Assembly (NCBI GenBank): GCA_023144005.1
Contig: JAGLGN010000006.1
Coordinates: 148,440-212,439 of the forward strand
Reading direction: 5' to 3'
Source of the DNA: a bacterium
GTDB lineage: Bacteria; AUK180
Length of the DNA: 64,000 bases
The notes under the pieces are model-generated. The model saw only the letters and a list, made by a program, of their open reading frames with translations. It did not search any database and was not told where the DNA came from. Below, in pieces: positions 724 to 63,212 of the stretch. The first letter of the stretch is position 1. Each line of letters starts with the position of its first letter. A program made the translations under genes and the position numbers.

Positions 724-2367
724 ATGAAGAAGATCGTTGAATGCGTTCCCAATTTTTCAGAGGGAAGGGACCTGGCGAAGATCGAGGAGATCAGAAAAGC
801 CATACTTTCGGTAAAGGGCGTGACCCTGCTTGATGTGGATCCGGGAAATGCCACCAACAGAACTGTGGTTACAATCGTCGGCGAACCCGATGCGGTTGGC
901 GAAGCCGCCTTCCGTTCTATAAAGAAAGCGGCGGAGATCATTGATATGAGCGGACACAAGGGCGAACATCCGCGTATGGGCGCTACCGATGTATGTCCTT
1001 TTGTTCCGGTGGCGAATATGTCAATGGAAGAAGCGGTAGAGCTTAGTAAAACGGTGGCAAAAAGAGTGGGAGAGGAATTGAATATCCCCGTATTTTTATA
1101 TGAATATTCCGCATCCAACGAGAAACGCAAATCGCTCGCATATATCCGCGAGGGTGAATACGAAAAGATGGCGGAAAAGATAATCACAGAAGAATTCAAA
1201 CCCGATTTCGGGCCTCAGGACTTCAATGTGACCGCCGGCTGCACCGCCATCGGCGCGAGAGAGTTCCTGATAGCATATAATCTCAATCTCAATACCACAG
1301 ATGTCAAGCTTGCCAATAAGATCGCGAAAAGGATCAGAGAGAAGGGATGGAAAGAGAAGCAGACCGACGGCTCCAGGAAGCAGGTTCCCGGCCTATTAAA
1401 ATCGGTGCGAGCTGTGGGATGGTTTATAGAAGAATACGGTGTTGCGCAGATATCCGTTAATCTGATCAATTATAAAGTAACTCCTCTTTGGAAGCTTTTT
1501 GAGGCGGCGGAAGAGGTTGGAAGGCAATTCGGCATTCGTATAACAGGAAGTGAATTGGTGGGCTTGATCCCGCTTCAGGCATTGAGGGAGACCGGAGAAC
1601 ATTTTCTTCAGAAAACAGCGAACTCCACCGCGATACCGGAAAGGGATATTTTGAAGATCGGCGTTCTGTCGATGGGCCTCTCAGAACTCTACCCTTTCAA
1701 ACTTGAAGAAAAGGTCATTGAATATAAGATAGCTGAGGAGGGCATACTCTCTTCCATGAGAGTAGATGCTTTCTGTGATGAACTTTCTTCAAACTCCCCC
1801 GCTCCCGGCGGTGGTTCGGTTGCCGCTCTTTCCGGTGCTTTGGCAGCATCTCTGCTTTCAATGGTAGCAAATCTTACCCATGGGAAAAAGAAATACAAAG
1901 ATGCATGGGAAGAGATAGAAAAAGCCGGCAGAAAGGCACAGGATATTAAAAGCAGACTCGTCAGCATAGTCGATTCCGATACGGTCCTCTTCAATGAATT
2001 CATGGCAGTCAGAGGGATGCCGAAATCTACTGAAGAACAGAAAGAACTGCGAAAAAAGGCATTAGAGCAGGCATCTTTGAATATCACACTTTCTCCCTTG
2101 GAATTACTCCGAGTCATGAAAGAGCTGATCTTCCCCCTGAGAATGATCGCGGAAAAAGGCAATGTAAATTCCATTTCCGATGCGGGAGTAGCCGCGTCAA
2201 TGCTTAGAGCCGGGGCGGAAAGCGCCCTGCTGAATGTCCTGATAAATCTGCCTTCGCTCAGCGACAGCGCTAGAGCGGATGAAATTAAAATTGAGGCCGA
2301 TGCGCTTTATGCTGAACTCTTGAAGGGTTCGCAGGAAATATTCGAGCAGGTGAAGAACGATCTGTAA
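724..2367 (+). CDS. Bifunctional glutamate formiminotransferase / formimidoyl-tetrahydrofolate cyclodeaminase (FTCD-like)
   Basis: 547 aa. The N-terminus has VECVPNFSEGRD, typical of the formiminotransferase domain. The C-terminus is a cyclodeaminase-like helical domain. AAGGAG RBS is present. Confidence 0.8.
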   Translation: MKKIVECVPNFSEGRDLAKIEEIRKAILSVKGVTLLDVDPGNATNRTVVTIVGEPDAVGEAAFRSIKKAAEIIDMSGHKGEHPRMGATDVCPFVPVANMSMEEAVELSKTVAKRVGEELNIPVFLYEYSASNEKRKSLAYIREGEYEKMAEKIITEEFKPDFGPQDFNVTAGCTAIGAREFLIAYNLNLNTTDVKLANKIAKRIREKGWKEKQTDGSRKQVPGLLKSVRAVGWFIEEYGVAQISVNLINYKVTPLWKLFEAAEEVGRQFGIRITGSELVGLIPLQALRETGEHFLQKTANSTAIPERDILKIGVLSMGLSELYPFKLEEKVIEYKIAEEGILSSMRVDAFCDELSSNSPAPGGGSVAALSGALAASLLSMVANLTHGKKKYKDAWEEIEKAGRKAQDIKSRLVSIVDSDTVLFNEFMAVRGMPKSTEEQKELRKKALEQASLNITLSPLELLRVMKELIFPLRMIAEKGNVNSISDAGVAASMLRAGAESALLNVLINLPSLSDSARADEIKIEADALYAELLKGSQEIFEQVKNDL

Positions 2368-2537
2368 TCCAAATCCAATTGCAAAAACATCGAGAGCGGT
2401 GCGCTTGCTGTCTGCGGCCACTCTCATTTTCCTCTCGAACTGCGCTCATCTTCATAAAGGTACATTTAATATCCTTGGCTTTTGCTATTCCCAGTGAAAT
2501 TTGTTAGAATATAAAAACATTATAATTAGGAGAGCTT

Positions 2538-4328
2538 ATGTCGAAGGAAATGATGTCAGGAAACGAGGCCATTGCCCGAGCGGCTTACGAAGCCGGAGTT
2601 AAGGTTGCAGCAGCATATCCAGGCACGCCATCGAGCGAAATAATGGAAAATGTTGCTAAGTATGACGAGATCTTTTCCCAATGGGGGCCCAATGAAAAGG
2701 TCGCCTTCGAAGTCGCCTTAGGAGCTGCTTTTGCCGGAAAACGAGCCATCTGCGCAATGAAACATGTCGGGCTCAATGTTGCGGCAGACCCTTTCTTTAC
2801 CGCTTCATACTCAGGGGTCGAAGCCGGATTTGTGATCGTTTCGGCCGATGAGCCGGGGATGCATTCTTCACAGAACGAACAAGATAACAGGAATTACGCC
2901 AAATTTGCTAAGATCCCCATGCTCGAACCCTCCGACTCACAGGAGGCGAAGGACTTCACAAAACTTGCTTTCGATATTTCCGAAAAATTCGACACCCCCG
3001 TCCTGATGAGGGTCACGACCAGGATCTGCCATTCCAAGAGCATGGTGGAACTGAAAGAGCGGAAAGAGACGGGACTTAATGAATTCCCCAAGAAAAATAC
3101 AAGGAAGTATGTCGTAATCCCGGCACATGCCAGGATAAAGAGGGTCATGGTCGAGCAAAGGCTGAAAGACTTGGCGGAATATGCCGAAAACACCGACATC
3201 AACAGGATAGAAGAAGGAACCCGAGATCTTGCATTTATTACCTCCGGGTTCTCTCACAATTATGTTAAAGAAGTTTATCCGGACGCGCATTTTCTGAAAT
3301 TGGGCTTCACCTATCCGCTTCCTATGAAAATGATCCGGAAATTCGTGGATCAGCACAAGAAGGTGATCGTGGTGGAAGAATTGGACCCCTTCATGGAAGA
3401 TCAGATAAAAGTAGCGGGGATCAATGTTCATGGAATGGATATAATCACGAATATCGGGGAACTTAACTCTGATATTATACGCAACTCAATAGAGAATACG
3501 AAGGACGAGGTCAACGATATCGGGGTCAGCATACCCGTAAGGCCGCCCGCACTTTGCCCCGGCTGCCCTCATAGAGGCGTTTTCACGATCCTGAGAGAAC
3601 AGAGCGTACGCGTTATGGGAGACATAGGATGTTATACACTGGGAGTGCTGCCGCCGCTTGACAATCTTGATTGGTGCGTATGTATGGGAGCCGGCGTATC
3701 TATGGTGCAGGGACTTGAAAAAGCATGGGATGATGAACATGCCGATAAGATCGTAGGCATGGTCGGAGATTCCACATTCTTTCATTCCGGCATAACGGGC
3801 CTGGTAGATATTGTGTATAATCATGGTATCGGAACTATTTTCGTCCTGGACAATTCAACGACCGCTATGACAGGAACGCAGGAGAATCCCGCAACGGGAA
3901 AGGATATAAAAGGAAAGCCCGCCACGCGTGTAGATATCAGGAAGATATGCGAAGCAGTGGGGATCAAGGAGATCTACGATGTGGACCCACAGGACCTTGA
4001 TGCCTTGGGCGAAGTAGTGGCTAAGGCCTTGGCTTCAAAAAACCCTACGGTAATAATAACACACAGGGAATGTATTTTACTGCCGCTCCGAGCTAAAGTT
4101 AAATTTACGCCACTGAAGATAGATACGGAAAAGTGTATCGGCTGCAAGAGCTGTGTCTCGGTCGGATGCCCCGCGTTGGCTTATGATAAGAAGTTAAGAA
4201 AAACAAGGGTTCTCCCCGAACTCTGTGTCGGATGTGAAGTATGCTCAAGAATGTGCCCTAAAAGCGCCTTTACCAAGAACGGAGAACCTCTGGTCTATGA
4301 AAAACGGCATAAGATAAGGGGGAAATAA
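2538..4328 (+). CDS. iorA: Indolepyruvate:ferredoxin oxidoreductase alpha subunit
   Basis: 596 aa with a TPP-enzyme N-terminus (GNEAIARAAYEAGV...AYPGTPSSEI) and two C-terminal CxxCxxCxxxCP ferredoxin motifs. AGGAGAG RBS. Confidence 0.9.
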   Translation: MSKEMMSGNEAIARAAYEAGVKVAAAYPGTPSSEIMENVAKYDEIFSQWGPNEKVAFEVALGAAFAGKRAICAMKHVGLNVAADPFFTASYSGVEAGFVIVSADEPGMHSSQNEQDNRNYAKFAKIPMLEPSDSQEAKDFTKLAFDISEKFDTPVLMRVTTRICHSKSMVELKERKETGLNEFPKKNTRKYVVIPAHARIKRVMVEQRLKDLAEYAENTDINRIEEGTRDLAFITSGFSHNYVKEVYPDAHFLKLGFTYPLPMKMIRKFVDQHKKVIVVEELDPFMEDQIKVAGINVHGMDIITNIGELNSDIIRNSIENTKDEVNDIGVSIPVRPPALCPGCPHRGVFTILREQSVRVMGDIGCYTLGVLPPLDNLDWCVCMGAGVSMVQGLEKAWDDEHADKIVGMVGDSTFFHSGITGLVDIVYNHGIGTIFVLDNSTTAMTGTQENPATGKDIKGKPATRVDIRKICEAVGIKEIYDVDPQDLDALGEVVAKALASKNPTVIITHRECILLPLRAKVKFTPLKIDTEKCIGCKSCVSVGCPALAYDKKLRKTRVLPELCVGCEVCSRMCPKSAFTKNGEPLVYEKRHKIRGK

Positions 4329-4909
4329 TGGAAAATCTGAATATATTAATAGTTGGTGTTGGCGGACAGGGCGTGATCCTTGCTTCGGAAGTCCTTACTC
4401 TGGTTGGGATAAAAGCCGGATTTGATGTTAAAAAGAGCGAGATCCACGGCATGTCTCAGCGCGGTGGAAGTGTTTCCTCGGACATCAGATTCAACAAGGT
4501 CAAGGTGCATTCTCCTGTTATCGCCAGAAAAAGCGCTGACTTTCTTGTGGGATTTGAAAAACTCGAGGCACTGAGAGCCATCGATATGGTCGCTGACGAC
4601 GGTATAATAATATCATCCAATTACCGCCTGGATCCGATGACCGTCTCCGCCGGCAGTATGATATATCCCGACGATGTTGAGGGTATTGTCAAAGAGAACC
4701 ATGAGAAGACATATTTCTTTGATCACGTTGAGACCATTGAGAAGATAAAGAATCCAAGAGCGGTAAATATCTATATACTCGGCGCATTGGCTTCATTTAT
4801 TGATATTGATAAAGAGATCTGGATCGAAGTGATAAAGAGCCGCGTACCTCCCAAAACGGTTGAATTGAATCTCAATGCTTTTGAAGAAGGGTTGAAGATT
4901 GGCGGTTAA
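4328..4909 (+). CDS. iorB: Indolepyruvate:ferredoxin oxidoreductase beta subunit
   Basis: 193 aa with ILIVGVGGQGVILASEVL. Its ATG overlaps the iorA stop (ATAATG). Confidence 0.85.
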   Translation: MENLNILIVGVGGQGVILASEVLTLVGIKAGFDVKKSEIHGMSQRGGSVSSDIRFNKVKVHSPVIARKSADFLVGFEKLEALRAIDMVADDGIIISSNYRLDPMTVSAGSMIYPDDVEGIVKENHEKTYFFDHVETIEKIKNPRAVNIYILGALASFIDIDKEIWIEVIKSRVPPKTVELNLNAFEEGLKIGG

Positions 4910-6923
4910 CAACCTCGTATTCTCCATATTGACCGAAGATATCCCCTTTGACGAGATACTGAGAACAAGAAATGTTTTCAGAAATATGATAGAGAAGCTT
5001 TTCTCCGACAATTCCATTGAAAAATCGGATCTGAAATTCTTTGCCACCCGAAACAGATCCGGCTTCATCGCCATGGACATGGAAGAGAAGCAGCCGGATT
5101 ACCGCGAGGAAGTCTGGGGGCCGCCCAAAGCGATATGCTTCGACGGCGCCGAAGAACCCACAAAGGCATTATCCGGATTCTGTAAAAAAGCGGGCATCGA
5201 GATCGGCGAAGCGGAATTTCATGATAAAGGGGGCAAGCCCTACGCTTTTTTCAATAAAAGCATCAAAGGAGAACGGTCCGTAGACATTCTTTCAAGACAT
5301 CTTCCTGAGCTGATCAGCCGACTGCCTTACAAAAAAAAGATGAATTTCGACGGGAAACAAAATTATATCCGTCCGATAAGAAGGGTGCTGTATCTCCTTG
5401 GGGACAAGGTGATCCCCTTGAAGATATTTGATGTATGCAGTTCAAATACCACATTAACAGCCCACTTCTCCCGCGAGATCAAGATAGATAAGGCCGGGGA
5501 CTTTATCGGGCAAATGGAAGGTAACGGTGTTCTGATCGAGCTTCATAAGAGAAAGGACCTGATCCGCAAGCAATTAGCAGCTCTTTCAGGTAATGGAATG
5601 AATATCGAGCTGGAAGATGATAAATTAACATATCTGGCGTTCCTGAACGAGAACCCCAGAGTCCTGGCAGGCAGTTTTCCCGAAAATTTTCTTGACCTTC
5701 CCGCAGAGATCATTGACCAAACCCTTTGGAAGCATCAGAAATGCGTCACTCTTACTAAAGATAATAAGGTGACGAATTCCTATATCACCGTGGTTGAAGA
5801 AGGCTGCGATCTGGAAAAAGTAGAGGCCAATTATTCTGATGTTATGCTATCGCGTTTATATGATGCGCGTTTCTTCTTTAATAATGACCTGAAACATAAG
5901 CCCGATCAAATGCAGAAAAAGCTGGAGCATGTTGTGTATTTCAATGATTGGGGAACCCTCGCGAGGGCCTCTGAATACCTCGTAATAATCGGAGAGTATC
6001 TTGCCCGGAAATTGGACCTTGACCCAAAGATCACCAGAGATGCGGCGCATTATTCAAAAATAGACCTTGTCTCCGAAATAATTTCCGAAAAAACATACAC
6101 CGACCTTCAGGGAATAATGGCAGGATACTATCTCAAGGAAGCGGGATTCGCCAAAGGGATCAGCGCGGCAGTTTCACAGCAATACCTCCCGGCGGGAGAG
6201 AATTCAGCATTACCCGAGACCATCGAAGGAGCGATCCTGTCTTTATCCAATAAGATATTACTGATGGCGGTATCGCATTTTTTGAATCTTCCCGTTACCG
6301 GTTCAAAGGATATATACGGCGTCCGCAGGGCGGCATTGGGATTTTATAAGGTCCTTTCTGAATTCAATATCCATATTGATATAAGCGCTCTTTTGAACCG
6401 CATTGACTTTCTGAATGAAATGCAGAAGAAACAGGTTTATAGCTTTATCGTTGAAAGGATACGGGCATTTGAAAGTGAGGTACACGGTATAAGCCGAGAG
6501 ATAATCGACGCTGCCGCATATTCCCCGGAACCCGATCTTCTCATGCTTAAGAAGAAGATATATTCATTAGAGAAATTCTCCAGGAATCCTGCATTTAGCG
6601 ACACTAAAACTACCCTGAAAAGAGTATTGAACATACTAGAAAAGGGCAGGGCCTTTGAGTTCCAGGAAGATTTTCTGATAGAAGATGCGGAGAAGCAGCT
6701 CTTTGACGAATTCCTTTTATTCAAAGAAAAGGTGGAGGGCGCCGGCGCGGACTTTGACCGGATCTGGAGCGCTATTTTGGACCTTAAGCCCGAGATCGAC
6801 CATTTCTTTGACAAAGTAATGGTCAATGTTGAAGATGAAAAGATAAAAAATAATAGAAAGGGCCTTTTGGCCTTGATCGGCGATATGCTTTTGAAGATCG
6901 CCAACTTTAAAATAATTAGCTAG
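4899..6923 (+). CDS. glyS: Glycyl-tRNA synthetase beta subunit
   Basis: 674 aa, alignable to E. coli GlyS (LLGDKVIP, the C-terminal FFDKVMV block). TTG start overlapping the iorB end. No glyQ is adjacent. Confidence 0.85.
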   Translation: MAVNNLVFSILTEDIPFDEILRTRNVFRNMIEKLFSDNSIEKSDLKFFATRNRSGFIAMDMEEKQPDYREEVWGPPKAICFDGAEEPTKALSGFCKKAGIEIGEAEFHDKGGKPYAFFNKSIKGERSVDILSRHLPELISRLPYKKKMNFDGKQNYIRPIRRVLYLLGDKVIPLKIFDVCSSNTTLTAHFSREIKIDKAGDFIGQMEGNGVLIELHKRKDLIRKQLAALSGNGMNIELEDDKLTYLAFLNENPRVLAGSFPENFLDLPAEIIDQTLWKHQKCVTLTKDNKVTNSYITVVEEGCDLEKVEANYSDVMLSRLYDARFFFNNDLKHKPDQMQKKLEHVVYFNDWGTLARASEYLVIIGEYLARKLDLDPKITRDAAHYSKIDLVSEIISEKTYTDLQGIMAGYYLKEAGFAKGISAAVSQQYLPAGENSALPETIEGAILSLSNKILLMAVSHFLNLPVTGSKDIYGVRRAALGFYKVLSEFNIHIDISALLNRIDFLNEMQKKQVYSFIVERIRAFESEVHGISREIIDAAAYSPEPDLLMLKKKIYSLEKFSRNPAFSDTKTTLKRVLNILEKGRAFEFQEDFLIEDAEKQLFDEFLLFKEKVEGAGADFDRIWSAILDLKPEIDHFFDKVMVNVEDEKIKNNRKGLLALIGDMLLKIANFKIIS

Positions 6924-6933
6924 GAGGATATGA

Positions 6934-9636
6934 ATGGCTGAAAAAATGGTTTATTTTTATGGCGGAGGTGGAGCGGAAGGCAATACCTCTATGAGGAATT
7001 TGCTCGGAGGAAAGGGCGCAAATCTTCATGAAATGGCAAAGATCGGAGTTCCGGTTCCCCCCGGATTTACCATAACTACTGAAGTATGTGTTCATTACGC
7101 CAATTCTGGAAATTACCCGGAAGGCGTGAAAAAAGAAGTGGATGAGCATCTTGAGAAAATGGGAAAGGTACTCGGAAAAACTTTCGGTGACAATGACAAT
7201 CCGCTTTTAGTATCGGTCAGATCCGGCGCGAGAGTATCGATGCCCGGAATGATGGATACCGTTCTAAACTTAGGACTGAACGAGAACGCTCTCGCCGGAA
7301 TAATCAAAAGGACCGGAAATGAGAGATTCGCTTATGACTCATACAGACGATTCATTCAGATGTACGGCGATGTCGTCCTGGAAGTCGATCTTCATCATTT
7401 TGAAACAAAGCTCAGCCAGGTCAAGAAAGAATACGGCGTGAAGCTCGATACGGAACTCAGCGTCGAAGGACTGAAGAAAGTTATTGAAGAATACAAGAAA
7501 ACGGTCAAAGAACACGGCAAAGAATTCCCTGAAGACCCGAAAGAACAGCTTTGGGGCGCGATCTCCGCTGTTTTCGGTTCATGGAACAATCAAAGAGCCA
7601 TCGATTACAGAAAGATCAATTCAATTCCCGATAATTGGGGAACCGCGGTAAATATCTGCTCCATGGTCTATGGAAATATGGGAAATGATTCCGCAACCGG
7701 AGTTGCCTTCACAAGAGACCCCTCGACCGGGGAAAAGAAATTCTTCGGGGAATTCCTCATCAATGCACAAGGCGAAGATGTCGTCGCAGGCACCAGAACT
7801 CCTCAGCATGTCACAAAGAAGGACGCTGACGAGTGGGGAGCGGAGAACGGGATCGATGAAAAGGAAAGATCGGAGAAATTCCCTTCACTGGAAGAGTTCA
7901 TGCCTGAGAATTATAAGGAATTAGTTGAAATTTATCAAAATCTGGAAGAGCATTACAAGGATATGCAGGATCTGGAGTTCACCATTGAAAAAGGAAAGCT
8001 CTATCTTCTGCAGACAAGAACAGGAAAAAGAACAGGAAAGGCAGCCATCAGGATAGCCGTTGAAATGGTCAAAGAAGGCCTGATCGACAAGAAGACCGCC
8101 GTCCTCAGGGTTGATCCGGCTCAGCTTGATCAATTGCTGCACCCCATGCTGGACCCCGAAGCTATCAAGGCAAATAAGCCCGTCGCAAAGGGACTTCCCG
8201 CTTCACCGGGCGCAGTAAGCGGACAAATCGTCTTCACCGCATTGGAAGCCGATCAATGGGTCGAAAATGGGAAGAAAGTCATCTTGGTTAGACAGGAAAC
8301 CTCACCCGATGATATAAAAGGAATGCAGGTCTCCGAGGGAATCCTTACAGCAACAGGTGGAATGACCTCACATGCCGCGGTTGTCGGCAGAGGTATGGGT
8401 AAATGCTGTGTGGTCGGATGCGGTGATATATCCATTGATTACGGTAAAAAAGAAGTAGCGATCGAAAAGGCCGGACTGACTTTTAAGGAAGGGGATGTCA
8501 TCACCTTAGACGGAACCACCGGCAGAATTTATAAAGGTACTCTCGCAACGATCGATCCGGAATTTACAGACGAGTTCACAGAATTCATGACATGGGTCGA
8601 TGAGTTCAGAACAATGGGGGTGAAAACAAACGCGGACACTCCGGAAGATGCTCGGAGAGCAAGGGACTTTGGCGCTGAAGGTATCGGCCTTTGCAGAACC
8701 GAACACATGTTCTTCGGCGGAGACAGGATCAAAGCTATGAGAGAAATGATCTTAGCGGAAAATCTTGAGGACAGGGAAGAAGCATTGGCTAAACTCCTGC
8801 CTATTCAGGAAGAGGATTTCTACGGTATCATGAAAGTAATGAAAGACCTTCCCGTTATCGTCCGCCTTCTCGATCCACCATTGCATGAGTTCCTTCCCCA
8901 TGAAGAAAAAGATCAGAAGATCATGGCGGAAGAAATGGATGTTTCTGTCGAGAAGATCAAACATCTTGTCGAGGGACTGCATGAATTCAATCCGATGCTT
9001 GGCTTCCGCGGATGCCGTCTCGGCGTTACCTATCCCGAGATCAATAAGATGCAGGTCACCGCGATTTTGAGAGCAGCGGCACGCCTTCACAAAGAAGGGA
9101 TCAATGCAATTCCCGAGATCATGGTACCGCTTATCTGTGATGTCAATGAATTCATACCTGTTAAGAAAATGGCACATAAGATCGCGAAAGAGGTCTTTGA
9201 GGAATTCGGAGTGACCTTTAAGTATATGGTCGGAACGATGATCGAAATACCAAGAGCCGCATTACTTGCCGGCGGTGTCGCCAAAGAAGCGGAGTTCTTC
9301 TCCTTCGGCACGAATGACCTTACACAGATGACCTTCGGGCTTTCCAGAGACGATGCGGGAAAATTCCTGCCTCTCTATGTGGACAAGAAGGTATTGGCAT
9401 CCGATCCTTTCCAGCAGTTGGATCAAACCGGCGTGGGAATGCTCGTTGAAATGGCAACAAAGAACGGTAAAAAAGCAAATGACAAACTTGAGGTAGGGAT
9501 CTGCGGAGAGCACGGTGGAGAGCCGACTTCCGTTGAGTTCTGCTATAGAACGGGACTTGATTATGTTTCCTGTTCACCTTTCAGGATCCCGATAGCCCGT
9601 CTGGCAGCGGCACAGGCAGCGCTCAAGGATAAATAA
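6934..9636 (+). CDS. ppdK: Pyruvate, phosphate dikinase
   Basis: 900 aa with the MxxKxVYFYGGG start, the catalytic His region (GGMTSHAAVVGRGMGKCCVVG) and a PEP-utilizing C-terminal TIM domain. Confidence 0.95.
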   Translation: MAEKMVYFYGGGGAEGNTSMRNLLGGKGANLHEMAKIGVPVPPGFTITTEVCVHYANSGNYPEGVKKEVDEHLEKMGKVLGKTFGDNDNPLLVSVRSGARVSMPGMMDTVLNLGLNENALAGIIKRTGNERFAYDSYRRFIQMYGDVVLEVDLHHFETKLSQVKKEYGVKLDTELSVEGLKKVIEEYKKTVKEHGKEFPEDPKEQLWGAISAVFGSWNNQRAIDYRKINSIPDNWGTAVNICSMVYGNMGNDSATGVAFTRDPSTGEKKFFGEFLINAQGEDVVAGTRTPQHVTKKDADEWGAENGIDEKERSEKFPSLEEFMPENYKELVEIYQNLEEHYKDMQDLEFTIEKGKLYLLQTRTGKRTGKAAIRIAVEMVKEGLIDKKTAVLRVDPAQLDQLLHPMLDPEAIKANKPVAKGLPASPGAVSGQIVFTALEADQWVENGKKVILVRQETSPDDIKGMQVSEGILTATGGMTSHAAVVGRGMGKCCVVGCGDISIDYGKKEVAIEKAGLTFKEGDVITLDGTTGRIYKGTLATIDPEFTDEFTEFMTWVDEFRTMGVKTNADTPEDARRARDFGAEGIGLCRTEHMFFGGDRIKAMREMILAENLEDREEALAKLLPIQEEDFYGIMKVMKDLPVIVRLLDPPLHEFLPHEEKDQKIMAEEMDVSVEKIKHLVEGLHEFNPMLGFRGCRLGVTYPEINKMQVTAILRAAARLHKEGINAIPEIMVPLICDVNEFIPVKKMAHKIAKEVFEEFGVTFKYMVGTMIEIPRAALLAGGVAKEAEFFSFGTNDLTQMTFGLSRDDAGKFLPLYVDKKVLASDPFQQLDQTGVGMLVEMATKNGKKANDKLEVGICGEHGGEPTSVEFCYRTGLDYVSCSPFRIPIARLAAAQAALKDK

Positions 9637-10518: not shown

Positions 10519-11421
10519 CTACAATCTCTGAAATCGCTCTGTAACAATCTGAATTAATTTCTCTTTATATTCGGGATTTAACTGAGAATCATCGATCTGA
10601 TCAATAATTAATTGTTTCTTTGCCGTCATATTGTTCATTACTTTTTCAGGAATACTAAATTTATCGGAAAAGGCGGCGAAATCGGTAAGCTGAATATTAT
10701 TTTTCTTGCCATTCAATGCCAGGGCCAGATCCTCTTCGCGCGGGATCACTAATTTTGATGAAACAATATCATATGCGGGAGATAATCGTATATTATTCAT
10801 GTCTGTATAGATTACTGAATAATTCTTCAAATGCGCGTCACCGTTTCCGATTATAAAAGAAAATAGGACTCTTTCAAAGAGGTATTGAATGTCCAGGGCC
10901 GGTATTTCCGAGATCTCATTCAGCTTATTGGCTATCTGCTCCACCGATCCCGTATATTTGTCCTTTTTGGATTTTCCTAGAATCTGACAGAAATCTTCCT
11001 GATTGATCTTTCTGTTATTTTCACGGTCGAATCTCTTTACAATATAGGCATAGGAATCATCCTTCAATTTCATTAAAGCATGGGAAGGAATATCTATTCC
11101 GAGAAGTTCGGCTATTGTCATACAGAGATTTTCATTTTCAGGGATCTGATCATAAACCCGGCTTTGCGGCTTTAAAATATATTCTCCACCTTCTGTAACG
11201 GACATTAATTTCTTTGATCTTTTGTTCAATTTCATTGAAAGTTTTGGTTGAACTCCCGAAATTGACAACTTACCCGCCATCTCCTGAGCTTTAATGGTTA
11301 TTTCACTTAAAGCCAGATCAATACCGGGGATATAACTGACTCCAAAGAGTCTATTTATGCAGGATTTGTGCATTGCCTGATCTGTATTGAGTGGTTTTCC
11401 GCATACCGGACATCTGTTCAT
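10519..11421 (-). CDS. hipT: HipT-like Ser/Thr kinase toxin (HipA kinase core without the N-terminal subdomain)
   Basis: Gly-rich loop LSISGVQPKLS is HipA/HipT-like. The catalytic region has GNGDAHLKN (HipA D..H.KN motif). Preferred start is MNRCPVCGK at 11421, an ATGA overlap with the upstream stop with GAGGAG 6 nt upstream. The first residues form a CxxC...HxxC mini-motif. Confidence 0.75.
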   Translation of the reverse strand: MNRCPVCGKPLNTDQAMHKSCINRLFGVSYIPGIDLALSEITIKAQEMAGKLSISGVQPKLSMKLNKRSKKLMSVTEGGEYILKPQSRVYDQIPENENLCMTIAELLGIDIPSHALMKLKDDSYAYIVKRFDRENNRKINQEDFCQILGKSKKDKYTGSVEQIANKLNEISEIPALDIQYLFERVLFSFIIGNGDAHLKNYSVIYTDMNNIRLSPAYDIVSSKLVIPREEDLALALNGKKNNIQLTDFAAFSDKFSIPEKVMNNMTAKKQLIIDQIDDSQLNPEYKEKLIQIVTERFQRL

Positions 11422-11741
11422 AGGAGCTCCTCTACCGATATGGAGCCAATGGTTTCCCGGCATGTTGAAAGGAGTATTCCAAAATCATCATCCTTGTCTA
11501 TTTTCAATGTAGAAGACACTACTTCAAGATACCAACCCTCCGGAAGCAGTCCCTGAAAGAAGGGGAATAATTCATCGTCCTCATAAGGCGCTTTCCTTAA
11601 CGGTAATGAAATTGAGATCGGCACATTTTCTTGAATGAATTCCTTTTCATATGTGAATTTATACCCACCTTCTGTCTCTTCCAAGATACCCGCTTTTTGT
11701 TCATTTGAGTAAATCACTGCTTTTCTAAAATCACTTCTCAT
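11418..11741 (-). CDS. hipS: HipS-like protein (stand-alone HipA N-terminal subdomain)
   Basis: Matches the HipA N-terminus: ISLPL and FFQGLLPEGW (E. coli HipA SLSLPL / FFDNLLPD). Start is uncertain: ATG at 11741, or TTG at 11756 overlapping hipB. Confidence 0.65.
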   Translation of the reverse strand: MRSDFRKAVIYSNEQKAGILEETEGGYKFTYEKEFIQENVPISISLPLRKAPYEDDELFPFFQGLLPEGWYLEVVSSTLKIDKDDDFGILLSTCRETIGSISVEELL

Positions 11742-11931
11742 CTTTGATAATCTCAATATGATGTCCGAAAAACCGCAGAACCTGATTCAGCTTATCAAGC
11801 CGTATAGTTGCTTTGTTATTTTCCAGCTCTCGGATAAATCTTAGGCCTACACCGGCTCTTTCCGACAATTCAACTTGCGTTAAATCATATTTCTTTCTTA
11901 GTTCTTTAATTCTTTTACCAATATTGTTCAT
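11731..11931 (-). CDS. hipB: XRE/Cro-type HTH regulator (HipB-like antitoxin/repressor)
   Basis: 66 aa with LTQVELSERAGVGLRFIRELENNK HTH. It is the first gene of the three-gene operon. Confidence 0.7.
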   Translation of the reverse strand: MNNIGKRIKELRKKYDLTQVELSERAGVGLRFIRELENNKATIRLDKLNQVLRFFGHHIEIIKDEK

Positions 11932-13749: not shown

Positions 13750-14022
13750 AGTGTACTGTTCCATAAATACCATAACAATGGCTGAAGCTATTTTGTTACG
13801 GATTCAAGGCGCGAGGAACATCGCATACCCACTGCGGTATGTAAGCGACGAGCAACGCAGAAGACAGGAAAAGAGCTTCAGCCCGAAGGGAATATCAGCT
13901 TTGGTCAATTTCTTTCTCTCTTTTCGTTTATGTACCACTAAGGGTACGCCGCACTCATCGTTCGTTGAGATTGACTCAAATCTAAGCATTCCATTGTTAT
14001 GGTATTTATGGAACCGTACACT
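13750..14022 (+). mobile_element. MITE-like non-coding element with 32-bp terminal inverted repeats, copy A
   Basis: TIRs AGTGTACTGTTCCATAAATACCATAACAATGG / CCATTGTTATGGTATTTATGGAACCGTACACT. The body is about 85% identical to copy B (43638-43910) and to the reverse-oriented copy C (62598-63042). No ORF is conserved beyond nucleotide identity. Confidence 0.6.
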
Positions 14023-20016: not shown

Positions 20017-20132
20017 GTGATTCTAAACATTGCGAAGAGTGTACAATTGCTTCACAATTTTCAACTCTTCGCTTGGAACCTTTACATCGGGACAGACGAA
20101 CGCCTGAAGCGTACGACATGTCCCATATCTTA
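20017..20132 (+). repeat. Second repeat family, copy 1 (hairpin-containing element of about 115 nt)
   Basis: About 85% identical to the reverse complement of 43549-43637 plus 43911-43938. The core CAATTTTCAACTCTTCGCTTGG...CATCGGGACAGACGAACGCC...GCGTACGACATGTCCCATATCTT contains GGGACA...TGTCCC inverted repeats. Confidence 0.45.
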
Positions 20133-20248
20133 CTTCGCTCCGGTATTCTATTGTTTGAACGGATGATTTTAATGAAAGGAGCGATATAGCGTTTTTCCGG
20201 TCTTACTCCCACTTCGTACTTTCCTTTTGAATGTTATTTCAAATTTTA

Positions 20249-20287: not shown

Positions 20288-20360
20288 GGGGATGTAGCTC
20301 AGTTGGGAGAGCGATGCGTTCGCAACGCATAGGTCGTCGGTTCAAATCCGGTCATCTCCA
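20288..20360 (+). tRNA. tRNA-Ala (anticodon CGC)
   Basis: Cloverleaf GGGGATG/CATCTCC acceptor with G3:U70, D-arm GCTCAGTTGGGAGAGC, anticodon loop TTCGCAA, T-loop TTCAAAT. CCA is not encoded. Confidence 0.9.
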
Positions 20361-20922
20361 TTTTTTCCTTTATCATTTATCTCAAAACTAGTGATCTGAT
20401 TCATAAAACAATAAAAGCAGTCTGAAATGTGAAGTGTGAAGTGGTGAAAAGACGGGATGAAATAAAACTGGATCCCACGGTCGCCAACTCCCTCTGGATG
20501 ACACTTTCCACTTCTTTATTTCCTTCCCGCATCCGCTCAACGGGAGCCCGGCAGCGCCGGGCGACCAACCCAAAAGAGTTTTGAACCATTTAAGCGACAT
20601 TGACATTTTTAACGGCAAGAATGAATGGTGGCGAAGCCGAAAATATCCAATTGTCTGAGTGAGCGAAAGCTAACGAGTTTTGGGATTTTAATGAGTGATA
20701 GCCGTGGTGAGTATCGTTGCAAAAAATGACGTGAGAGCAAAAACGGATCAAAACTCAATTAAATAATCTTTATTCAATTGTCAATTTTACATTGACAATT
20801 CAAAGATGATATTCCCTTCGGGTAGATACTCTTTTTATGTCTTCTGCTTTCCTGCGGCTCTCATGCTGAACAAAATAGCATCAGCCATTGTCAATGGATT
20901 TATGAATTAGCTCACTAATAAA

Positions 20923-21414
20923 TTACTTGAATTTCTTAAGCAATGCGCCAAGAAAGGATGCCGGAAGGCCGTTCAGTATCGTATAATTGAAAACCTTATT
21001 CAGGAAATCATCACCCCAGAGGCCGATCTTCAGAAGCGCCATTGAGATGGTGATCAAAACGAATATAGAAAAGATAGCAAGAGCATTTCCGAGATAAGTC
21101 ATGACCTCATCGGCGATAATATCGTACATAAGATCAAAGTACAAGCCAAAAAGAATGATCGCCCAGATATGATTGGAGGGTCCCATTACACCTGTTTTCA
21201 ATACTGCCGCAATGATGCCCAATAGAAATCCTGTGTGCGGGAACACTATGAGCTTACGGGCAAAGAACAGGATACCCAATGCGATAAGCGACAGTATGGC
21301 AGATGAGAACATGACCTCATTACTAAAGAGAAATTCCCCGAGAAATATCTCAACAACACCCCAGAGCAGTCCGAAAACCAATATGCCAAGAAACTTTTTA
21401 GCTAAGGAACTCAT
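20923..21414 (-). CDS. Small polytopic membrane protein, about 5 TM (possibly an ECF-type substrate-capture component)
   Basis: 163 aa, hydrophobic. It overlaps the end of the upstream helicase gene by 17 nt. A QueT-like role is suggested only by queH in the same operon. Confidence 0.4.
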   Translation of the reverse strand: MSSLAKKFLGILVFGLLWGVVEIFLGEFLFSNEVMFSSAILSLIALGILFFARKLIVFPHTGFLLGIIAAVLKTGVMGPSNHIWAIILFGLYFDLMYDIIADEVMTYLGNALAIFSIFVLITISMALLKIGLWGDDFLNKVFNYTILNGLPASFLGALLKKFK

Positions 21415-36973: not shown

Positions 36974-38359
36974 ATGGACCCCTATTTGAAAGCATATGAG
37001 GAATTTACTGAATTGGAGATCGCCTTCGATCTTGATACTCTTCGGCTGAATGAAGCGAATCCCTGGGAATTGATCCGCTTCTTCGCCTATAATGAATTGA
37101 TGAAGGCACGGGGGGTATTCGGTGAGGGCCAGCACAGAGCACACAAGGGAGTTCTTAAAAAGCTCAAAGAGCATTCTGTGCCGTTCTTCGGCCATGATCC
37201 CATCACTGCACCGAGAGACAGGGTGCTCGTTATCGGCCATCAGAGGCGCATCAAAACGGATCAAGGACTTTATCGCGATGTCTATTGTGAGCCGTATCTC
37301 GAAATTATGCAGAAAAACAATATCCCGTTCAATTATATGGAGCGTCCCTATTCTCTGCCGGCACATTTCACTCCGACAGAAACAAAGAAGGTCTTTTACC
37401 TTGACAATATACTGCTTGGGAAACACGACAGCGGAAGCAAGGAGAACTTTGTTTCTCTGTTAAAAACAAAAGCTGCGCAGTTTTGCAAGGAACTGGGCAT
37501 ACCAAGCGGCCCTTTAATGGCATATATTGACAATGCCGGAAGGCATTTTTCAGCAGGAACTGATAATATCCGCCGTCTTCTTAAAAAGATAGTCCCGAAA
37601 AAGATCGTTATGGCGATAGGATATATAAGGGTAAATCAGCTCATTTCACTGGAAGCGAAAAAAATGGGCATCGAAGTGATCGAGATACAGCATGGGATAA
37701 TCTCCAAATTCCATATGGGATATTCATATGAGAAGTGGCGGAAAAACCCGCCGGCATTTCCTGACAAGATACTTCTTTTCGGAGATGACTGGGCCGCTTG
37801 CGCCCCATTCCCAATAGACAATAAAGAGCTCATAACCTTGGGCGCTCCGCGTTTTCAGGATAAAAAGAAGATATCTCAAGGCATCGGGGCAAGGAAGAAT
37901 ATTCTATTTATTTCACAGGGATCCATAGGAGAAAATATCATTTCGGCGGCACTGGAGCTGGAAAAATCGGTAGATGAAGAATTACATATCGGAATTAAGC
38001 TGCATCCGGCGGAAGTGGGAAGAAAGTCGAAGATATACGATCAATTAAGGCAAAACGGAAATATTGATATATTTGACGGAAATGAGGACATATACGCCTT
38101 ATATGAACAGTACGGGACGGCGGTCGGGGGATATTCCACCGCTTTATTGGAAGCCAGAGAGTTCGGACTGGTTGCCTATTGTCTCGATGTGCCGGGGGTA
38201 CATTATTTCGATAGATTTATTACAAACAAGAAAGTGAGTCTTATTTCCTCTATTCATCATTTAGCCGAAACGATCAAAAAACAGGGCGATAGCAAAAATA
38301 GAAATACGGGGAATATCTTTTCCGATTTCCGGCCGGATAAGTTTCTGGAACTACTGTAA
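36974..38359 (+). CDS. Hypothetical protein, possibly a capsule-type (KpsS/KpsC-like) ulosonic-acid glycosyltransferase
   Basis: 461 aa. The call rests only on genomic context within the polysaccharide locus and a vaguely GT-B-like C-terminus (GGYSTALLEAREFGL). Confidence 0.3.
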   Translation: MDPYLKAYEEFTELEIAFDLDTLRLNEANPWELIRFFAYNELMKARGVFGEGQHRAHKGVLKKLKEHSVPFFGHDPITAPRDRVLVIGHQRRIKTDQGLYRDVYCEPYLEIMQKNNIPFNYMERPYSLPAHFTPTETKKVFYLDNILLGKHDSGSKENFVSLLKTKAAQFCKELGIPSGPLMAYIDNAGRHFSAGTDNIRRLLKKIVPKKIVMAIGYIRVNQLISLEAKKMGIEVIEIQHGIISKFHMGYSYEKWRKNPPAFPDKILLFGDDWAACAPFPIDNKELITLGAPRFQDKKKISQGIGARKNILFISQGSIGENIISAALELEKSVDEELHIGIKLHPAEVGRKSKIYDQLRQNGNIDIFDGNEDIYALYEQYGTAVGGYSTALLEAREFGLVAYCLDVPGVHYFDRFITNKKVSLISSIHHLAETIKKQGDSKNRNTGNIFSDFRPDKFLELL

Positions 38360-39248: not shown

Positions 39249-40601
39249 TCATATGATTATATCATCCATACGGGGAAATTTAAATCCGCTCTGTGTAAAT
39301 TTCGAAATTTCTTCCGTGTATTCAGCGATCTCACCCATTGACCGCTCAAATTGCCTTTTTCTCCGCACTTTTTTACTATAGACGCTACCGTCAAGCAGTC
39401 CGAAATTCGCGCTCATGGGTTTGAACCCGGATTTGCCGGGAGGGGAAGAAAGATATCGCAAAAGCGCGCCGGTCATCGTATTTTCCCCGGGTATAATGAA
39501 CTCTCCTTTCTGCAGGTCCTGCAGCATCGCCAGGCCCGCAACGATACCGCTTACGGCGGATTCAATATAGCCCTCCACGCCGGTCAGCTGACCAGCGAAG
39601 AAGATCCTCTTTTTTCCAGAGTCGATCAGTTTTATCCCATTCTGCAATATGCCTGGTGAATTGATATATGTATTTCTGTGCATGATGCCGTATCTCAGGA
39701 ACTTGGCACCCTGAAGGCCGGGGATCATTCTCAACACTCTCTTCTGCTCCTCAAATTTCAATCGTGTCTGAAAACCGATAAGCTCCACTGCATCGTATAG
39801 ATTGTTCTCAGGTCGCGCCTGGACCACAGCGTGCGGACGCTTCTCAATATAATCCCTGAATCCAACAGGGCGGAGCGGGCCGAAACACAGAGACTCCTTC
39901 CCCCTTGAGGCGATCTCCTCAACCGGAAGACAAGCCTCAAAAAAGAGTTTTTCATCAACATCGTTCAGGGGAACCGTGCCAGCATTTATCAGCTCATCGT
40001 AAAATGCGGAATATTGAGCTTCATCCATAGGAAAATTCAAGAGCTTACCTTCGCCCTTTCCATATCTCAGCCCCCAAAAGGTCTGGGACATATCTATTGT
40101 ATCGGTTCTTATAACAGGTGAGACAGCATCGTAAAAATATAAGCTGTCAGCGCCAGTAAGGGTCTGAATAAAAGAGGAGAAGGACGGAGAAGTAAGCGGG
40201 CCTGTCGCGATGATGATGTTCTCAAAGGCGGTAAGGTCAAGGACCTCTTCCCTCTTGATCTTGATATTGGGATCATTTGACAATTCTTCTGTGATCATGC
40301 GCGAAAACTCTTCGCGGACCACATTAAGGGATCGCCCGGCAGGAACCCTTGTTTCTACGGCAATTTTCAGCACTAGGGAATTCAGACGGCGCATCTCTGC
40401 CTTTAACAGTCCCTTGGAGGTCAGCGGATCCATGCTCTTAAGAGAGTTGGAACAGACTATCTCGGCAAGGTCGCCGGTTATATGGATCCCTGTCATCTTC
40501 TTGGGGCGCATCTCCCAAAGGGTCACCTTTACGCCATTGCTTGACAGAATACTGGCGGCTTCCACTCCGGCCAAACCGCCGCCGATAATATCAACCTTCA
40601 C
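39249..40601 (-). CDS. trmFO: Methylenetetrahydrofolate--tRNA-(uracil54-C5)-methyltransferase TrmFO
   Basis: 450 aa with an FAD-binding N-terminus (VDIIGGGLAGVEAA...LWEMRP) and TrmFO/Gid family body. Confidence 0.9.
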   Translation of the reverse strand: MKVDIIGGGLAGVEAASILSSNGVKVTLWEMRPKKMTGIHITGDLAEIVCSNSLKSMDPLTSKGLLKAEMRRLNSLVLKIAVETRVPAGRSLNVVREEFSRMITEELSNDPNIKIKREEVLDLTAFENIIIATGPLTSPSFSSFIQTLTGADSLYFYDAVSPVIRTDTIDMSQTFWGLRYGKGEGKLLNFPMDEAQYSAFYDELINAGTVPLNDVDEKLFFEACLPVEEIASRGKESLCFGPLRPVGFRDYIEKRPHAVVQARPENNLYDAVELIGFQTRLKFEEQKRVLRMIPGLQGAKFLRYGIMHRNTYINSPGILQNGIKLIDSGKKRIFFAGQLTGVEGYIESAVSGIVAGLAMLQDLQKGEFIIPGENTMTGALLRYLSSPPGKSGFKPMSANFGLLDGSVYSKKVRRKRQFERSMGEIAEYTEEISKFTQSGFKFPRMDDIII

Positions 40602-43384
40602 TATTTACCACCGATGCTTCTGATCACTCCGAGGTAATCTTCATGATATTCTTTATTTACGGGGCGGTCATTCAGCAGATCGGGATACCATTTCTGTATG
40701 AACCGCCCGATACGCGAGATCCTTGTATTATCCTTTTTTCCAGAATAGACCGCCCTTTGAAGTTCAAGCAATTCCACAGCAACCCGGCGGCCCGCATCGA
40801 CAAGATCATCGGACAATTGCTCTTTTCTTAATGCCTCTTTGATCGCTTCCATTTTTTCCTCAATCTTCCCGGAGGTTCCGGCAAGTTCGCCTTTTTCCTT
40901 GCTTTCTTTGATATCTTCGGACAATTTTGAGAGTCGTTCCTGCAGTTCCTGCTGCTTATCAGCAGCCTGCTTCACGGCATCGCTCATCCTCTTATTCATA
41001 CCGGAAGAACGGTATTGTTCCATCATTTTCTCCAGATAACTATTGAGTTTCTGCTGATCTTGTGAAAGGGAGTTGAGCTTTTCAAAAAGATTCATTGAGC
41101 TGCCCGAAGAACAAGAGGAGGCATCCATTCTATCCATGAGGACTATCAGTTTATTTAAAAAGATCGCATTGGAATTCTTGAATTGAGAAAAATATCTCTG
41201 CTCCTTTTTCAGGCGGTAATTTTGAAAACTATTGTATGTATTTTGAAAAGAACTGTGAAGCGAGTGGTCGAACATCATCAGGATCGCGGCAAAAGAAGCC
41301 ATCTCATCTTTCATTGCGGCAAGATTCGATTCCGCCCAGCTCTCCATCTCAGGCGTAAAGTGCGACATCACATCAAGAGCGACGGTCTTCTCGACAAGGG
41401 GCGAAAGGTCAGGAGAGCTATTGGAACGGTTGTTCAATTTATCCGCGGAATAATCTTTGAAATCCGATGATAATTTTTTCTTGCTTTGCTCAAAGGTCTT
41501 TTGCTGCATCTTTTGATTCATCTTTGATAATTCATTTCTTGCTTTATCGGGGTCAAGAAGCTTTTCGTCCTCTTTATCAAAACGCGAGAACAGATCAGAT
41601 ACATCGCTCTTGATCTCGTCCAATTTATCGGTTTGCTTCTGTTCTAATTGATCCAATTTCTTTGAAATACGGGCAGCGTCTAACCCTTTTTTATATTCTT
41701 CGAGCTGTTTGATGATCCTCTCTAATTCCCAGGATATCTTCTCAAGATCGGCCTGTGATACCTTTTGTGACGATGGGCGGGAATCCAATCCCTGCTCCAT
41801 TTTCTGCCGCAGCAGATCCAGCACTTCTTTATTCAAAAGTTCTTTCATGAGCTCCTGCTGCCTTTTTACCTGCTCGATGATCTTCTTTTCAACCTTCAGT
41901 TCTTCCAGTGCTGCCTCCAAGTATTCCATGGTCTTCTCTATCGTTTCGCCACGCTTCTGGATCTCTTGTGTAAGTTCGTTGCTCTTTGAAGTTTTCGGAT
42001 CGAATTTCTTGTCACCGCCATCCAGCGGCTCCGCCTTCATCATCTCAAGTTCCCCGAAAAGCGTACTGCCGACCTCCTCCCAAATATCCTGCAAAGCATT
42101 ATTATCCATAAGAGAAAGAGTGAGCTTTCTTGAGCGGCCTTCCTTTCCATAGCCGTCAAAAGACCTTATATAGATATAGACGTAGCTGTCTGATATATCC
42201 GTTATTCTTTCCAACGGGATCATGTATTTCCCGGAGAGAGACAGCGAACCCTTATTCACTCTCAACTCCCTTATGCCGGCTATTCCTCCGCTTTCCTTCT
42301 CCCAGGCAAATTCAACCCTGTATATCCCATCGGGATCTGTAATTTCGTACCGCAATTCATAATCTCCATAAAAACCGTCCAGTTCAACATCTTCAAGCGG
42401 TTTCGTTATCTTTACCGATGGACCTGAATTGGGCGCGATGGGGATCCTTTTATAGAACTTCCCTGCAAGATAGCCGCTCTTATAAAAGTAAGCGAGAAAC
42501 TCACAGTCATTGAAGGGAATGATGGAAGAGGCAAGCAGATCAGAGCGGTTGCCATCCACGGTCAGAACAAAGGTATCATAATCCCCCTGCGGCTCGATCT
42601 TGTAATGCAGCGTTTCACCCTCAAGCGGTATTCTGTCCCCGGGTTCCAAATTCCTGCCTTGTCTTTTGATATGGAAGTGCGAGCGGAAACTAAGGGGAAG
42701 TATGAATTCCACAGGGATCTCCTTGCTTCCGCCTTTCCAGGTAACGATCAGAGGAGAGCGCTCTATCGCTGGAAGCTCGATCTCTGAATTATTAACACTT
42801 TGCTTAAATAATGGGTCCCTCCCGTCAGAGATAGAGATTTCAATGGCATCGCCATAGGTATGGATATTCATTCTTACTGGATCGGCTGTGAAGCGGTTAT
42901 ACACCAGTCTGTCGGGTGATATCCGCACAAAGGAAGCGGTGGAAAGACCGGTATTCATCCCTGTCAGCAGCCAAGAGAACGCGATGATGAAAAATATCTG
43001 AATATATACCGCTCTGAACAACCAGAAAGGCGGGATGACCGGAGAAGTCCTCTGCATGAGCAGGTCATAGAGTTTCAATATCTCAAAATCGACGGCACCG
43101 GCGTCAGCACCGCTTTTCAATATCAGCGCGTGATATAATCTGTTCCCTTCATCACCGCAATCCTTTTTGATCATTCTCAATACTCCCCGATCCGAAATAT
43201 ACAGAAGAATAATTAATATCAACGGTATCAGAATAAGAAATACGGGCAATCGCGCCCAGATCACGATCGCAAGAAGAATAGGAAGAAGGCAGAGGGATAT
43301 CAGAAGGCCGCGTACAAATTGATACATTCTGAAATGATTGAGAAGCTCCTTTGCTTTTCTCCCGATGCCAGTGTGCTGTTTCAT
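40601..43384 (-). CDS. Membrane-anchored protein with N-terminal TM helices, a beta-rich middle domain and a long C-terminal coiled coil (unknown function)
   Basis: 927 aa. Its stop overlaps the trmFO start by 1 nt. The final 500 aa show heptad-like charged repeats. Confidence 0.6.
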   Translation of the reverse strand: MKQHTGIGRKAKELLNHFRMYQFVRGLLISLCLLPILLAIVIWARLPVFLILIPLILIILLYISDRGVLRMIKKDCGDEGNRLYHALILKSGADAGAVDFEILKLYDLLMQRTSPVIPPFWLFRAVYIQIFFIIAFSWLLTGMNTGLSTASFVRISPDRLVYNRFTADPVRMNIHTYGDAIEISISDGRDPLFKQSVNNSEIELPAIERSPLIVTWKGGSKEIPVEFILPLSFRSHFHIKRQGRNLEPGDRIPLEGETLHYKIEPQGDYDTFVLTVDGNRSDLLASSIIPFNDCEFLAYFYKSGYLAGKFYKRIPIAPNSGPSVKITKPLEDVELDGFYGDYELRYEITDPDGIYRVEFAWEKESGGIAGIRELRVNKGSLSLSGKYMIPLERITDISDSYVYIYIRSFDGYGKEGRSRKLTLSLMDNNALQDIWEEVGSTLFGELEMMKAEPLDGGDKKFDPKTSKSNELTQEIQKRGETIEKTMEYLEAALEELKVEKKIIEQVKRQQELMKELLNKEVLDLLRQKMEQGLDSRPSSQKVSQADLEKISWELERIIKQLEEYKKGLDAARISKKLDQLEQKQTDKLDEIKSDVSDLFSRFDKEDEKLLDPDKARNELSKMNQKMQQKTFEQSKKKLSSDFKDYSADKLNNRSNSSPDLSPLVEKTVALDVMSHFTPEMESWAESNLAAMKDEMASFAAILMMFDHSLHSSFQNTYNSFQNYRLKKEQRYFSQFKNSNAIFLNKLIVLMDRMDASSCSSGSSMNLFEKLNSLSQDQQKLNSYLEKMMEQYRSSGMNKRMSDAVKQAADKQQELQERLSKLSEDIKESKEKGELAGTSGKIEEKMEAIKEALRKEQLSDDLVDAGRRVAVELLELQRAVYSGKKDNTRISRIGRFIQKWYPDLLNDRPVNKEYHEDYLGVIRSIGGK

Positions 43385-43417
43385 AAATACGATGACAGTC
43401 GTTCACGTGGCGAACGA

Positions 43418-43447
43418 TGTGTGAAGTGTGATGTGTGATGTGTAAAG
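43418..43447 (+). repeat. Tandem heptamer repeat TGTGA(A/T)G x4 (C-free)
   Basis: TGTGTGAAG TGTGATG TGTGATG TGTAAAG immediately upstream of the 927-aa gene. A related TGTGAAG x2-3 array lies at 20428-20451. Confidence 0.5.
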
Positions 43448-63204: not shown

Positions 63205-63212
63205 GAGAGATT

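Follow-up and report, generated by a model that had tools for sequence, protein, structure and literature searches.

Nested and partly mosaic repeats of Atribacterota: a probable new MITE family

The 273-bp repeats described here, together with their longer relatives, most probably constitute a new MITE family of Atribacterota, whose members are nested in one another and mosaic in composition. The initial annotation of the window (the whole 64-kb stretch of DNA analysed) had offered two readings, a MITE or a mobile structured-RNA gene. The first is supported by elements that are small, bounded by inverted repeats, devoid of a coding signal, multi-copy, dispersed and nested, and that differ in presence between related genomes, while the second found no support. 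In the proposed mechanism, a transposase encoded elsewhere would bind the two matching ends and insert the element at TA or similar dinucleotides, whether through cut-and-paste or copy-and-paste, each insertion adding 2 bp to an element of 271 bp to give 273. Judging by the flanks, the family can be assigned tentatively to a superfamily, possibly of the IS630/Tc1-mariner type or of an IS5/Harbinger type that duplicates 2-3 bp.

Reading of the regions upheld the outline of the initial annotation, in which copies A and B are each 273 bp in length and C is a 445-bp composite in reverse orientation. The accompanying count of three copies was correct as to A, B and C, but too low (Table 1). BLAST and a terminal-repeat search of the window recovered the type-2 elements D and E and a solo terminal repeat, and an internal fragment is also present. 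Read on the opposite strand, composite C consists of the full copy C1 followed by the partial copy C2, the latter being the remainder of the element that hosts C1; the same nested layout is complete in the related locus L035. Copy A follows the stop codon (13742) of a glycosyltransferase gene and precedes the ribosome-binding site of the next gene, whose ATG is at 14038; outside GTG..CAC, the copy is flanked by TA on the left and TT on the right. Copy B is inserted in the loop of the stem-loop of element E, for which the uninterrupted site in locus L002 reads GCAATTGTAAACTCT, and about 13 bp more of E follow beyond B (43911-43923). Element D lies 30 bp downstream of the only tRNA gene in the window (20288-20360) and has about 90 bp in common with type 1 (positions 13-48 and 102-154 of copy A), the remainder being different.

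Table 1. Elements in the window, the interrupted pgeF gene, and elements with the same ends on metagenome contigs.
Feature	Sequence	Coordinates	Strand	Remarks
Copy A	window	13750-14022	+	type 1, 273 bp; terminal repeats 13750-13781 and 13991-14022
Internal fragment	window	20032-20196	-	resembles type-2 interior, 74.7% over 166 bp; far side of the tRNA gene
Element D	window	20390-20916	-	type 2, 527 bp; same terminal repeats; TA on both sides
Element E	window	43370-43637	+	truncated type-2 element of which the left end and the body remain; terminal repeat 43370-43401; hosts copy B
Copy B	window	43638-43910	+	type 1, 273 bp; flanks GA (left) and TA (right)
pgeF/yfiH 5' part	window	61989-62597	+	matches Cu-oxidase_4 (Pfam) over positions 1-179 of the 238 in the profile; gene interrupted here by composite C
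Composite C	window	62598-63042	-	445 bp; C1 and C2
Copy C2	window	62598-62768	-	positions 103-273 of a second type-1 element
Copy C1	window	62770-63042	-	full-length type 1; inner or recombinant member of the composite in pgeF
pgeF 3' part	window	63043-63213	+	ends ...FFSYRRDGAKVGEMLMFFIL and stop; in frame with the 5' part after removal of 62598-63042
Solo terminal repeat	window	63573-63596	-	24 bp, GTGTTCTGATCTATGGAATATAGA; TA on both sides
Same-end element	L065	8331-8590
Same-end element	L077	5880-6131
Same-end element	L088	6442-6700
Same-end element	L083	2346-2507
Same-end element	L069	1606-1767

The long terminal inverted repeats reported initially were borne out, matching at 31 of 32 positions in A and at 27 of 32 in B, as was the similarity of the bodies at about 85% (85.4% over 261 bp between A and B). 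The hairpin CATACC-N6-GGTATG and the repeat GGCTGA(A/T)GC...GCTTCAGCC are present in the window's elements, and a 35-nucleotide degenerate core pattern matches five times in the window compared to no match in 100 shuffles. The core had been described as strictly conserved, which does not extend to copy C, with three mismatches in the 30-mer.

Across 41 full copies, the modal length is 273 bp and the mean column identity is 87%, and the relatives measure 527-644 bp, sizes in keeping with a MITE. Type-1 elements and the longer mosaic relatives share a terminal inverted repeat of about 30 bp, GTG-NN-CTG-W-T-Y-CATAAATAC. The element as a whole is a long imperfect foldback, in which positions 1-95 resemble the reverse complement of positions 184-273 at about 75% and the outer 32 bp are near-perfect. 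Each arm carries a small subterminal hairpin, CATACC-N6-GGTATG on the left and GGACC/GTACC-N6-GGTAC on the right. The ends fall into two types, A-type (GTGTACTGTTCC..) and B-type (GTG-N-TCTGATTC..), and within a single copy the left and right ends almost always belong to one type, with 88.7% of terminal-repeat cells paired across the family. Such co-variation is to be expected where a single protein has to bind both ends. Type-2 elements (527-644 bp) and several other forms combine the common ends and short modules with otherwise unrelated non-coding interiors.

Comparison of filled, empty and nested sites indicates that the elements are mobile, with insertions inside one another, between the genes of operons and within genes. 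In the window, composite C interrupts pgeF, the missing C-terminus of which (...FFSYRRDG...) is found just downstream of the composite in another frame. Exact deletion of the composite yields an intact pgeF of 256 amino acids, and in L002 (from JAGLWT01), which is about 96% identical to the window over 58.5-64 kb, the site is empty and the 256-aa pgeF uninterrupted. L002 also contains a complete 644-bp type-2 element (2686-3329), flanked by TA, at the place where the window keeps the 24-bp solo end. A second pair of sites is filled in L045 and empty in the orthologous L010. Nesting of type 1 in type 1 occurs at position ~100, with the complete pattern X(1-103)-Y(1-273)-X(99-273) in L035 and derivatives of it in L021, L029, L005 and composite C of the window. 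Nesting of type 1 in type 2 is represented by copy B and its relatives, which occupy the loop of the type-2 stem-loop; in L099, an insertion at the same TA of this stem-loop has clean TA on both sides. In all four comparisons, two to four junction bases differ between the filled and empty states, which counts against the MITE reading, as do the irregular TA flanks and the lack of an autonomous partner in the loci scanned. Where composite C entered pgeF (window 62590-62600 and 63040-63050; L002 3850-3865), the filled site reads ..GCTAT/CGAGC.., with the slash marking the insertion, and the empty site ..GCTCAATAGC.., so that 4-5 bases differ despite 96% identity in the surroundings.

Several insertions bear on the genes around them. 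Owing to the frameshift by composite C, pgeF is probably inactive in the population from which the window derives, and gene calls render it either as two genes or as a 373-aa chimera. Copy A would place a hairpin with a 32-bp stem into the transcript between two co-directional genes, and may thereby affect their expression. A different outcome is seen in L010 (612-1928) and L045 (5242-5278), where a Beta_elim_lyase ORF stays open through an in-frame 273-bp copy, an insertion of 91 amino acids, and still matches its profile from end to end. This looks like a tolerated in-frame insertion, and one that has persisted since the divergence of the two Atribacterial MAGs (~93% nucleotide identity), because it is present in both. 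The solo terminal repeat stands immediately after the stop codon of dnaA, the C-terminal end of which occupies 63596-63982 on the minus strand (NCBIfam TIGR00362, E = 3e-32), the gene running off the right edge of the window. Elsewhere in the window, a HipA kinase toxin is encoded on the minus strand (10519-11756) in two overlapping ORFs, couple_hipA (11418-11756) and HipA_C (10519-11463), which could reflect either a frameshift or a genuinely split gene. In L095, a type-1 copy (716-986) lies between rplL and an rpoBC-like gene, a single gene call of 2799 amino acids (1062-9461, also found in L096) that carries RpoB-type as well as RpoC-type domains of Pfam, suggesting that rpoB and rpoC are fused in this lineage. 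The same locus has a gene at 11141-11494, about 1 kb from a type-1 copy, with Pfam hits to 23S_rRNA_IVP / bAvd, the kind of accessory protein known from diversity-generating retroelements.

The initial annotation had proposed a search for further copies, and these were found. In a core-pattern scan of 185,579 genomes, one per species, there were 54 matches in 48 stretches, all within two Atribacterial MAGs, JAGLWT01 ('bacterium RS_12_30') and JAIVYW01 (Candidatus Atribacteria). The true copy number exceeds 54, because many of the matches sit at contig ends. A protein search with the longest frame of the repeat returned only 17 short hits among 5.8 billion proteins. Five repeat-ORF proteins that were traced, as well as the RelA/SpoT of the window, all come from ZHAN22-2 metagenomes (ENA) or from the NCBI MAG GCA_030631245.1, and it is the RelA/SpoT protein that places the population of the window in the ZHAN22-2 metagenomes. 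Neither the terminal repeat nor the element in full had a relevant BLAST match in the plasmid and phage collections. With hits of the species scan in two MAGs, 17 protein hits and no plasmid or phage match, the family is thus confined to a narrow Atribacterial lineage. Composite C is present at 99.5-100% identity in five independent assemblies, which rules out an assembly artefact; no empty site occurs among these near-identical strains. A literature search on MITEs in Atribacterota, by topic and with the repeat as a text string, found nothing relevant.

The observation that no transposase is in sight was confirmed, in that none of the sizeable window ORFs scanned against Pfam or NCBIfam (two others already being annotated) encodes a transposase or recombinase. 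The window ORFs are of a housekeeping nature, including tRNA synthetases, PFOR subunits, polysaccharide synthesis, RelA and the C-terminus of DnaA, and four are without a significant Pfam/NCBIfam match (40601-43384, 927 aa; 45374-47320, 648 aa; 36974-38359, 461 aa; and 20923-21414, 163 aa). Likewise, no transposase was found in ~310 kb of related loci and ~65 kb of Pfam-annotated loci, and in the former there is no pair of terminal repeats spaced 1-3 kb apart. No IS630 signature (PYSPxLNPIE) appears in the six frames of all loci, and neither this motif search nor Pfam yielded a DDE_3-type transposase between the same ends. No DDE_Tnp_1/4-type gene was found in the loci scanned, nor did any locus show a gene for RAYT or TnpA. 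Multi-copy ORFs in the related loci proved to be either frames of the repeats or genes for response regulators and carbamoyltransferases. The repeat ORF was considered as an N- or C-terminal remnant of a transposase and rejected, its 17 short hits being MITE-derived.

An autonomous element between the same terminal repeats, which the initial annotation had suggested looking for, was absent from the window, from the related loci and from the viral, metagenome, plasmid and phage collections searched with the ends. The terminal-repeat scan gave 0 hits in viral contigs and 41 in metagenome contigs. Nine of the latter extend beyond the pattern, to 21-28 bp, each of them a small non-coding element or a contig-end stub with an unrelated interior, from another organism; the remaining matches are due to chance or to an unrelated conserved region. 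The outer terminal repeat (GTGCTCTGATTCATAAATACGGTGACG) thus occurs on small non-coding elements of unrelated metagenome contigs, the interiors of which are completely different (Table 1). Where both ends are readable (L065, L077 and L069), the flanks are a 3-bp TAA or TTA. From the presence of the same outer repeat on these unrelated elements, it would follow that the ends are recognised more widely than by the Atribacterial family alone.

The initial annotation stated that there is no target-site duplication, because the flanking A/T had been counted as part of the repeat. With the element boundary taken as GTG...CAC (271 bp) and the outermost A/T counted as flank, TA adjoins the element at 76 of 152 ends (50%), compared to a background of 5.9%, so that the apparent lack of a duplication, which had given the element an unusual look, is largely due to the boundary chosen. 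The wider flank consensus is H-T-A before the element and T-A-D after it, and the third position out is T in 33%, C in 36%, A in 28% and G in 3%. Among 40 MAG copies, TA is found on both sides of 5, on one side only of 29 and on neither side of 6. In the material as a whole, TA on both sides is found for element D, the type-2 element of L002, the solo end, L099, L100 and the copy between rplL and the RNA polymerase gene (L095a). In the ZHAN22-2 assemblies, which are better, about half of the copies have clean TA on both sides (~4 of 9 by hand count). The flank data come mostly from low-coverage MAGs (JAIVYW, 2-3x) that are possibly chimeric at repeats, and the irregular TA pattern may in part be due to low coverage, to nested insertions nearby and to decay. 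Perfect 3-bp flanking repeats are found in 4 of 40 copies, against ~0.6 by chance, and three of them read as TWA. A direct-repeat test for duplications of 1-5 bp at several boundary offsets gave no single clean answer. Relative to the family consensus, the nested insertion in L035/L030 shows a net gain of 271+2 bp, and similarly the 445 bp in pgeF equal 443+2, with the frame restored on removal. In L035/L030, the consensus ..CAACGA/GCAACG.. (slash at the insertion point) becomes ..CAATGA, followed by the element (GTG..CAC) and TAGCAACG... On the left the GA of the target itself remains, and on the right stands a new TA, which is absent from the target consensus.

Other explanations of the repeats can be weighed against this background. 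A protein-gene reading was rejected on account of a neutral codon-position pattern and of stop codons in all six frames of the consensus, any open frame being present in only 10-15% of copies. The initial annotation had noted no conserved ORF; in fact, about two in three copies have an open 77-codon frame that starts from the ATG of ..CAATGGC.., yet this frame carries no coding signature, with substitutions of 195/248/253 by codon position (no third-position excess) and a synonymous share of 27% versus 23% expected. It is highly improbable that the repeats are instead a structured non-coding RNA gene family (a mobile sRNA or ribozyme-like), in which the core and hairpins would form the functional RNA and the terminal repeats its closing stem. 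At -103.5 kcal/mol (z = -8.6), the fold of the whole element is indeed far better than that of its shuffles; conservation is high in the core and in the CATACC/GGTATG hairpin, and the paired ends co-vary. However, the fold signal stems entirely from the terminal repeats, as the body without them has z = -1.7, and high conservation is expected for young transposon copies as well. The co-variation of the ends is no argument for RNA, because a transposon needs one protein that binds both ends. The RNAalifold covariation term is -0.63 kcal/mol, and by pair counting in the helices named initially, two-sided changes occur almost only in the terminal-repeat helices. Compensatory changes, which the initial annotation had advised looking for, are confined to these ends. 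Helices 3 and 5 show such changes in 1-2 sequences each and helix 4, the CATACC-N6-GGTATG hairpin, in none. That hairpin is present and conserved as first described, but the kept stem and changing loop represent conservation rather than compensation, as the stems never co-vary. Furthermore, the window as a whole matched only tRNA in Rfam at the gathering threshold, copy A at E<=10 gave only chance-level snoRNA and CRISPR-repeat hits, and copy A and its surroundings lack promoter-like and terminator-like sites. Copies in both orientations within the window, inside coding sequences and nested in each other also speak against an RNA gene.

Two further alternatives concern the manner of movement. 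Transfer of a hairpin repeat as single-stranded DNA by an HUH/Y1 enzyme, as for REPIN/RAYT or IS200/IS605, would join the element 3' of a motif without duplication. It could explain the many copies in which just one side, on either strand, has T (or TA), the near-absence of G before that T (never G by hand count) and the long imperfect foldback with a small subterminal hairpin in each arm. It is nevertheless very unlikely, given the net gain of 271+2 bp, the extra TA that the target lacks in the nested case, the several copies with clean TA on both sides, terminal repeats that are not palindromes themselves, unlike REP units, and the absence of a RAYT/TnpA gene from all loci viewed. Alternatively, the TA could be carried along by the element, as a retained overhang (like the TTAA of piggyBac) or as the 2 bp at which a serine or tyrosine recombinase makes its crossover or couples the strands; it would pair with a near-TA target, and replication would resolve the heteroduplex into one TA and one target-derived flank. 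By hand tally, TA is on exactly one side in 20 of 24 copies with non-repeat flanks, and 22 of 28 non-TA flanks are one mismatch from TA (GA, AA, CA or TG). The GA..TA flanks of L035/L030 also fit, whereas GA..GA would result from a staggered cut and gap filling of the ordinary kind. Against this, the sample is small and mostly from low-coverage MAGs, TA on both sides is common in the better ZHAN22-2 assemblies, no recombinase was found in the loci scanned, and decay, neighbouring nested insertions or mis-assembly could mimic the pattern, leaving a carried TA of this kind quite unlikely. The more general proposal of a non-standard mechanism, in which the element keeps TA from its previous site and joins TA-like targets, with replication sorting out the mismatch, is likewise regarded as unlikely. 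If true, it would point to an undescribed transposase or recombinase.

These repeats give the uncultured phylum Atribacterota a family of an ordinary kind of element, and they leave the understanding of such elements unchanged. Their presence explains why these MAGs break at particular places, with many core matches at contig ends. They also set traps for annotation, including the split or chimeric pgeF, the 91-aa insertion in the lyase, and 'hypothetical proteins' of 77-134 amino acids that are frames of the repeat. In addition, copies could serve as strain-level markers, and the common outer repeat on unrelated metagenome elements hints at a widespread, still unnamed transposase.

Among known systems, REPINs are about 70-110 bp in length and built from two REP palindromes. 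The Atribacterial elements resemble REPIN/RAYT systems as symmetric, hairpin-forming, dispersed, non-coding repeats without a clean duplication, and differ in having ends of 32-bp non-palindromic repeats around a 209-bp body, with no RAYT gene seen. Rickettsia palindromic elements (RPE) are palindromic repeats that are able to sit inside protein-coding genes while leaving the frame unbroken, and a similar case is the one 273-bp (91-codon) copy that is read through in the Beta_elim_lyase ORF in two genomes. In contrast to RPE, the Atribacterial consensus has stops in six frames and the pgeF insertion is disruptive. The in-frame tolerance looks incidental, rather than a property of the family, because few copies have an open frame.

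Two groups of MITEs come into question for the superfamily. The MITEs of IS630/Tc1-mariner (Stowaway-like; RUP of Streptococcus pneumoniae) are similar in their TA within a CTAG-like palindromic context and in the 2-bp gain, and the Atribacterial ends resemble the (C)AGTG.. ends of Tc1-like transposons. They differ in that TA would be duplicated on both sides of every copy, whereas this is so in only a minority of Atribacterial copies, and no IS630-type transposase or motif was found. The likeness to IS5/PIF-Harbinger (Tourist-like) lies in the 3-bp TAA/TTA of the same-end metagenome elements and in the 4 of 40 Atribacterial copies with 3-bp repeats, while most Atribacterial copies lack T at the third position out and a DDE_Tnp_1/4-type gene was not encountered. 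CACTA, Helitron, IS110, Tn3-derived elements and integron attC were dropped for a mismatch in the sequence of the ends, in the length of the duplication or in size.

Correia elements (CREE/NEMIS) of Neisseria are small and gene-less, have terminal inverted repeats of ~26-32 bp and a TA target, and are often co-transcribed with neighbouring genes. To our knowledge, no cognate transposase is known in their host. The two families belong to different phyla and have no sequence similarity, the Atribacterial elements measuring 273 bp compared to about 100-155 bp for Correia elements. Unlike the latter, Atribacterial elements often have TA on one side only, nest at a preferred internal site and have longer mosaic relatives with the same ends. 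For both, no cognate transposase has been found, and they are alike as small gene-less elements with end repeats of similar length, an association with TA and many dispersed copies.
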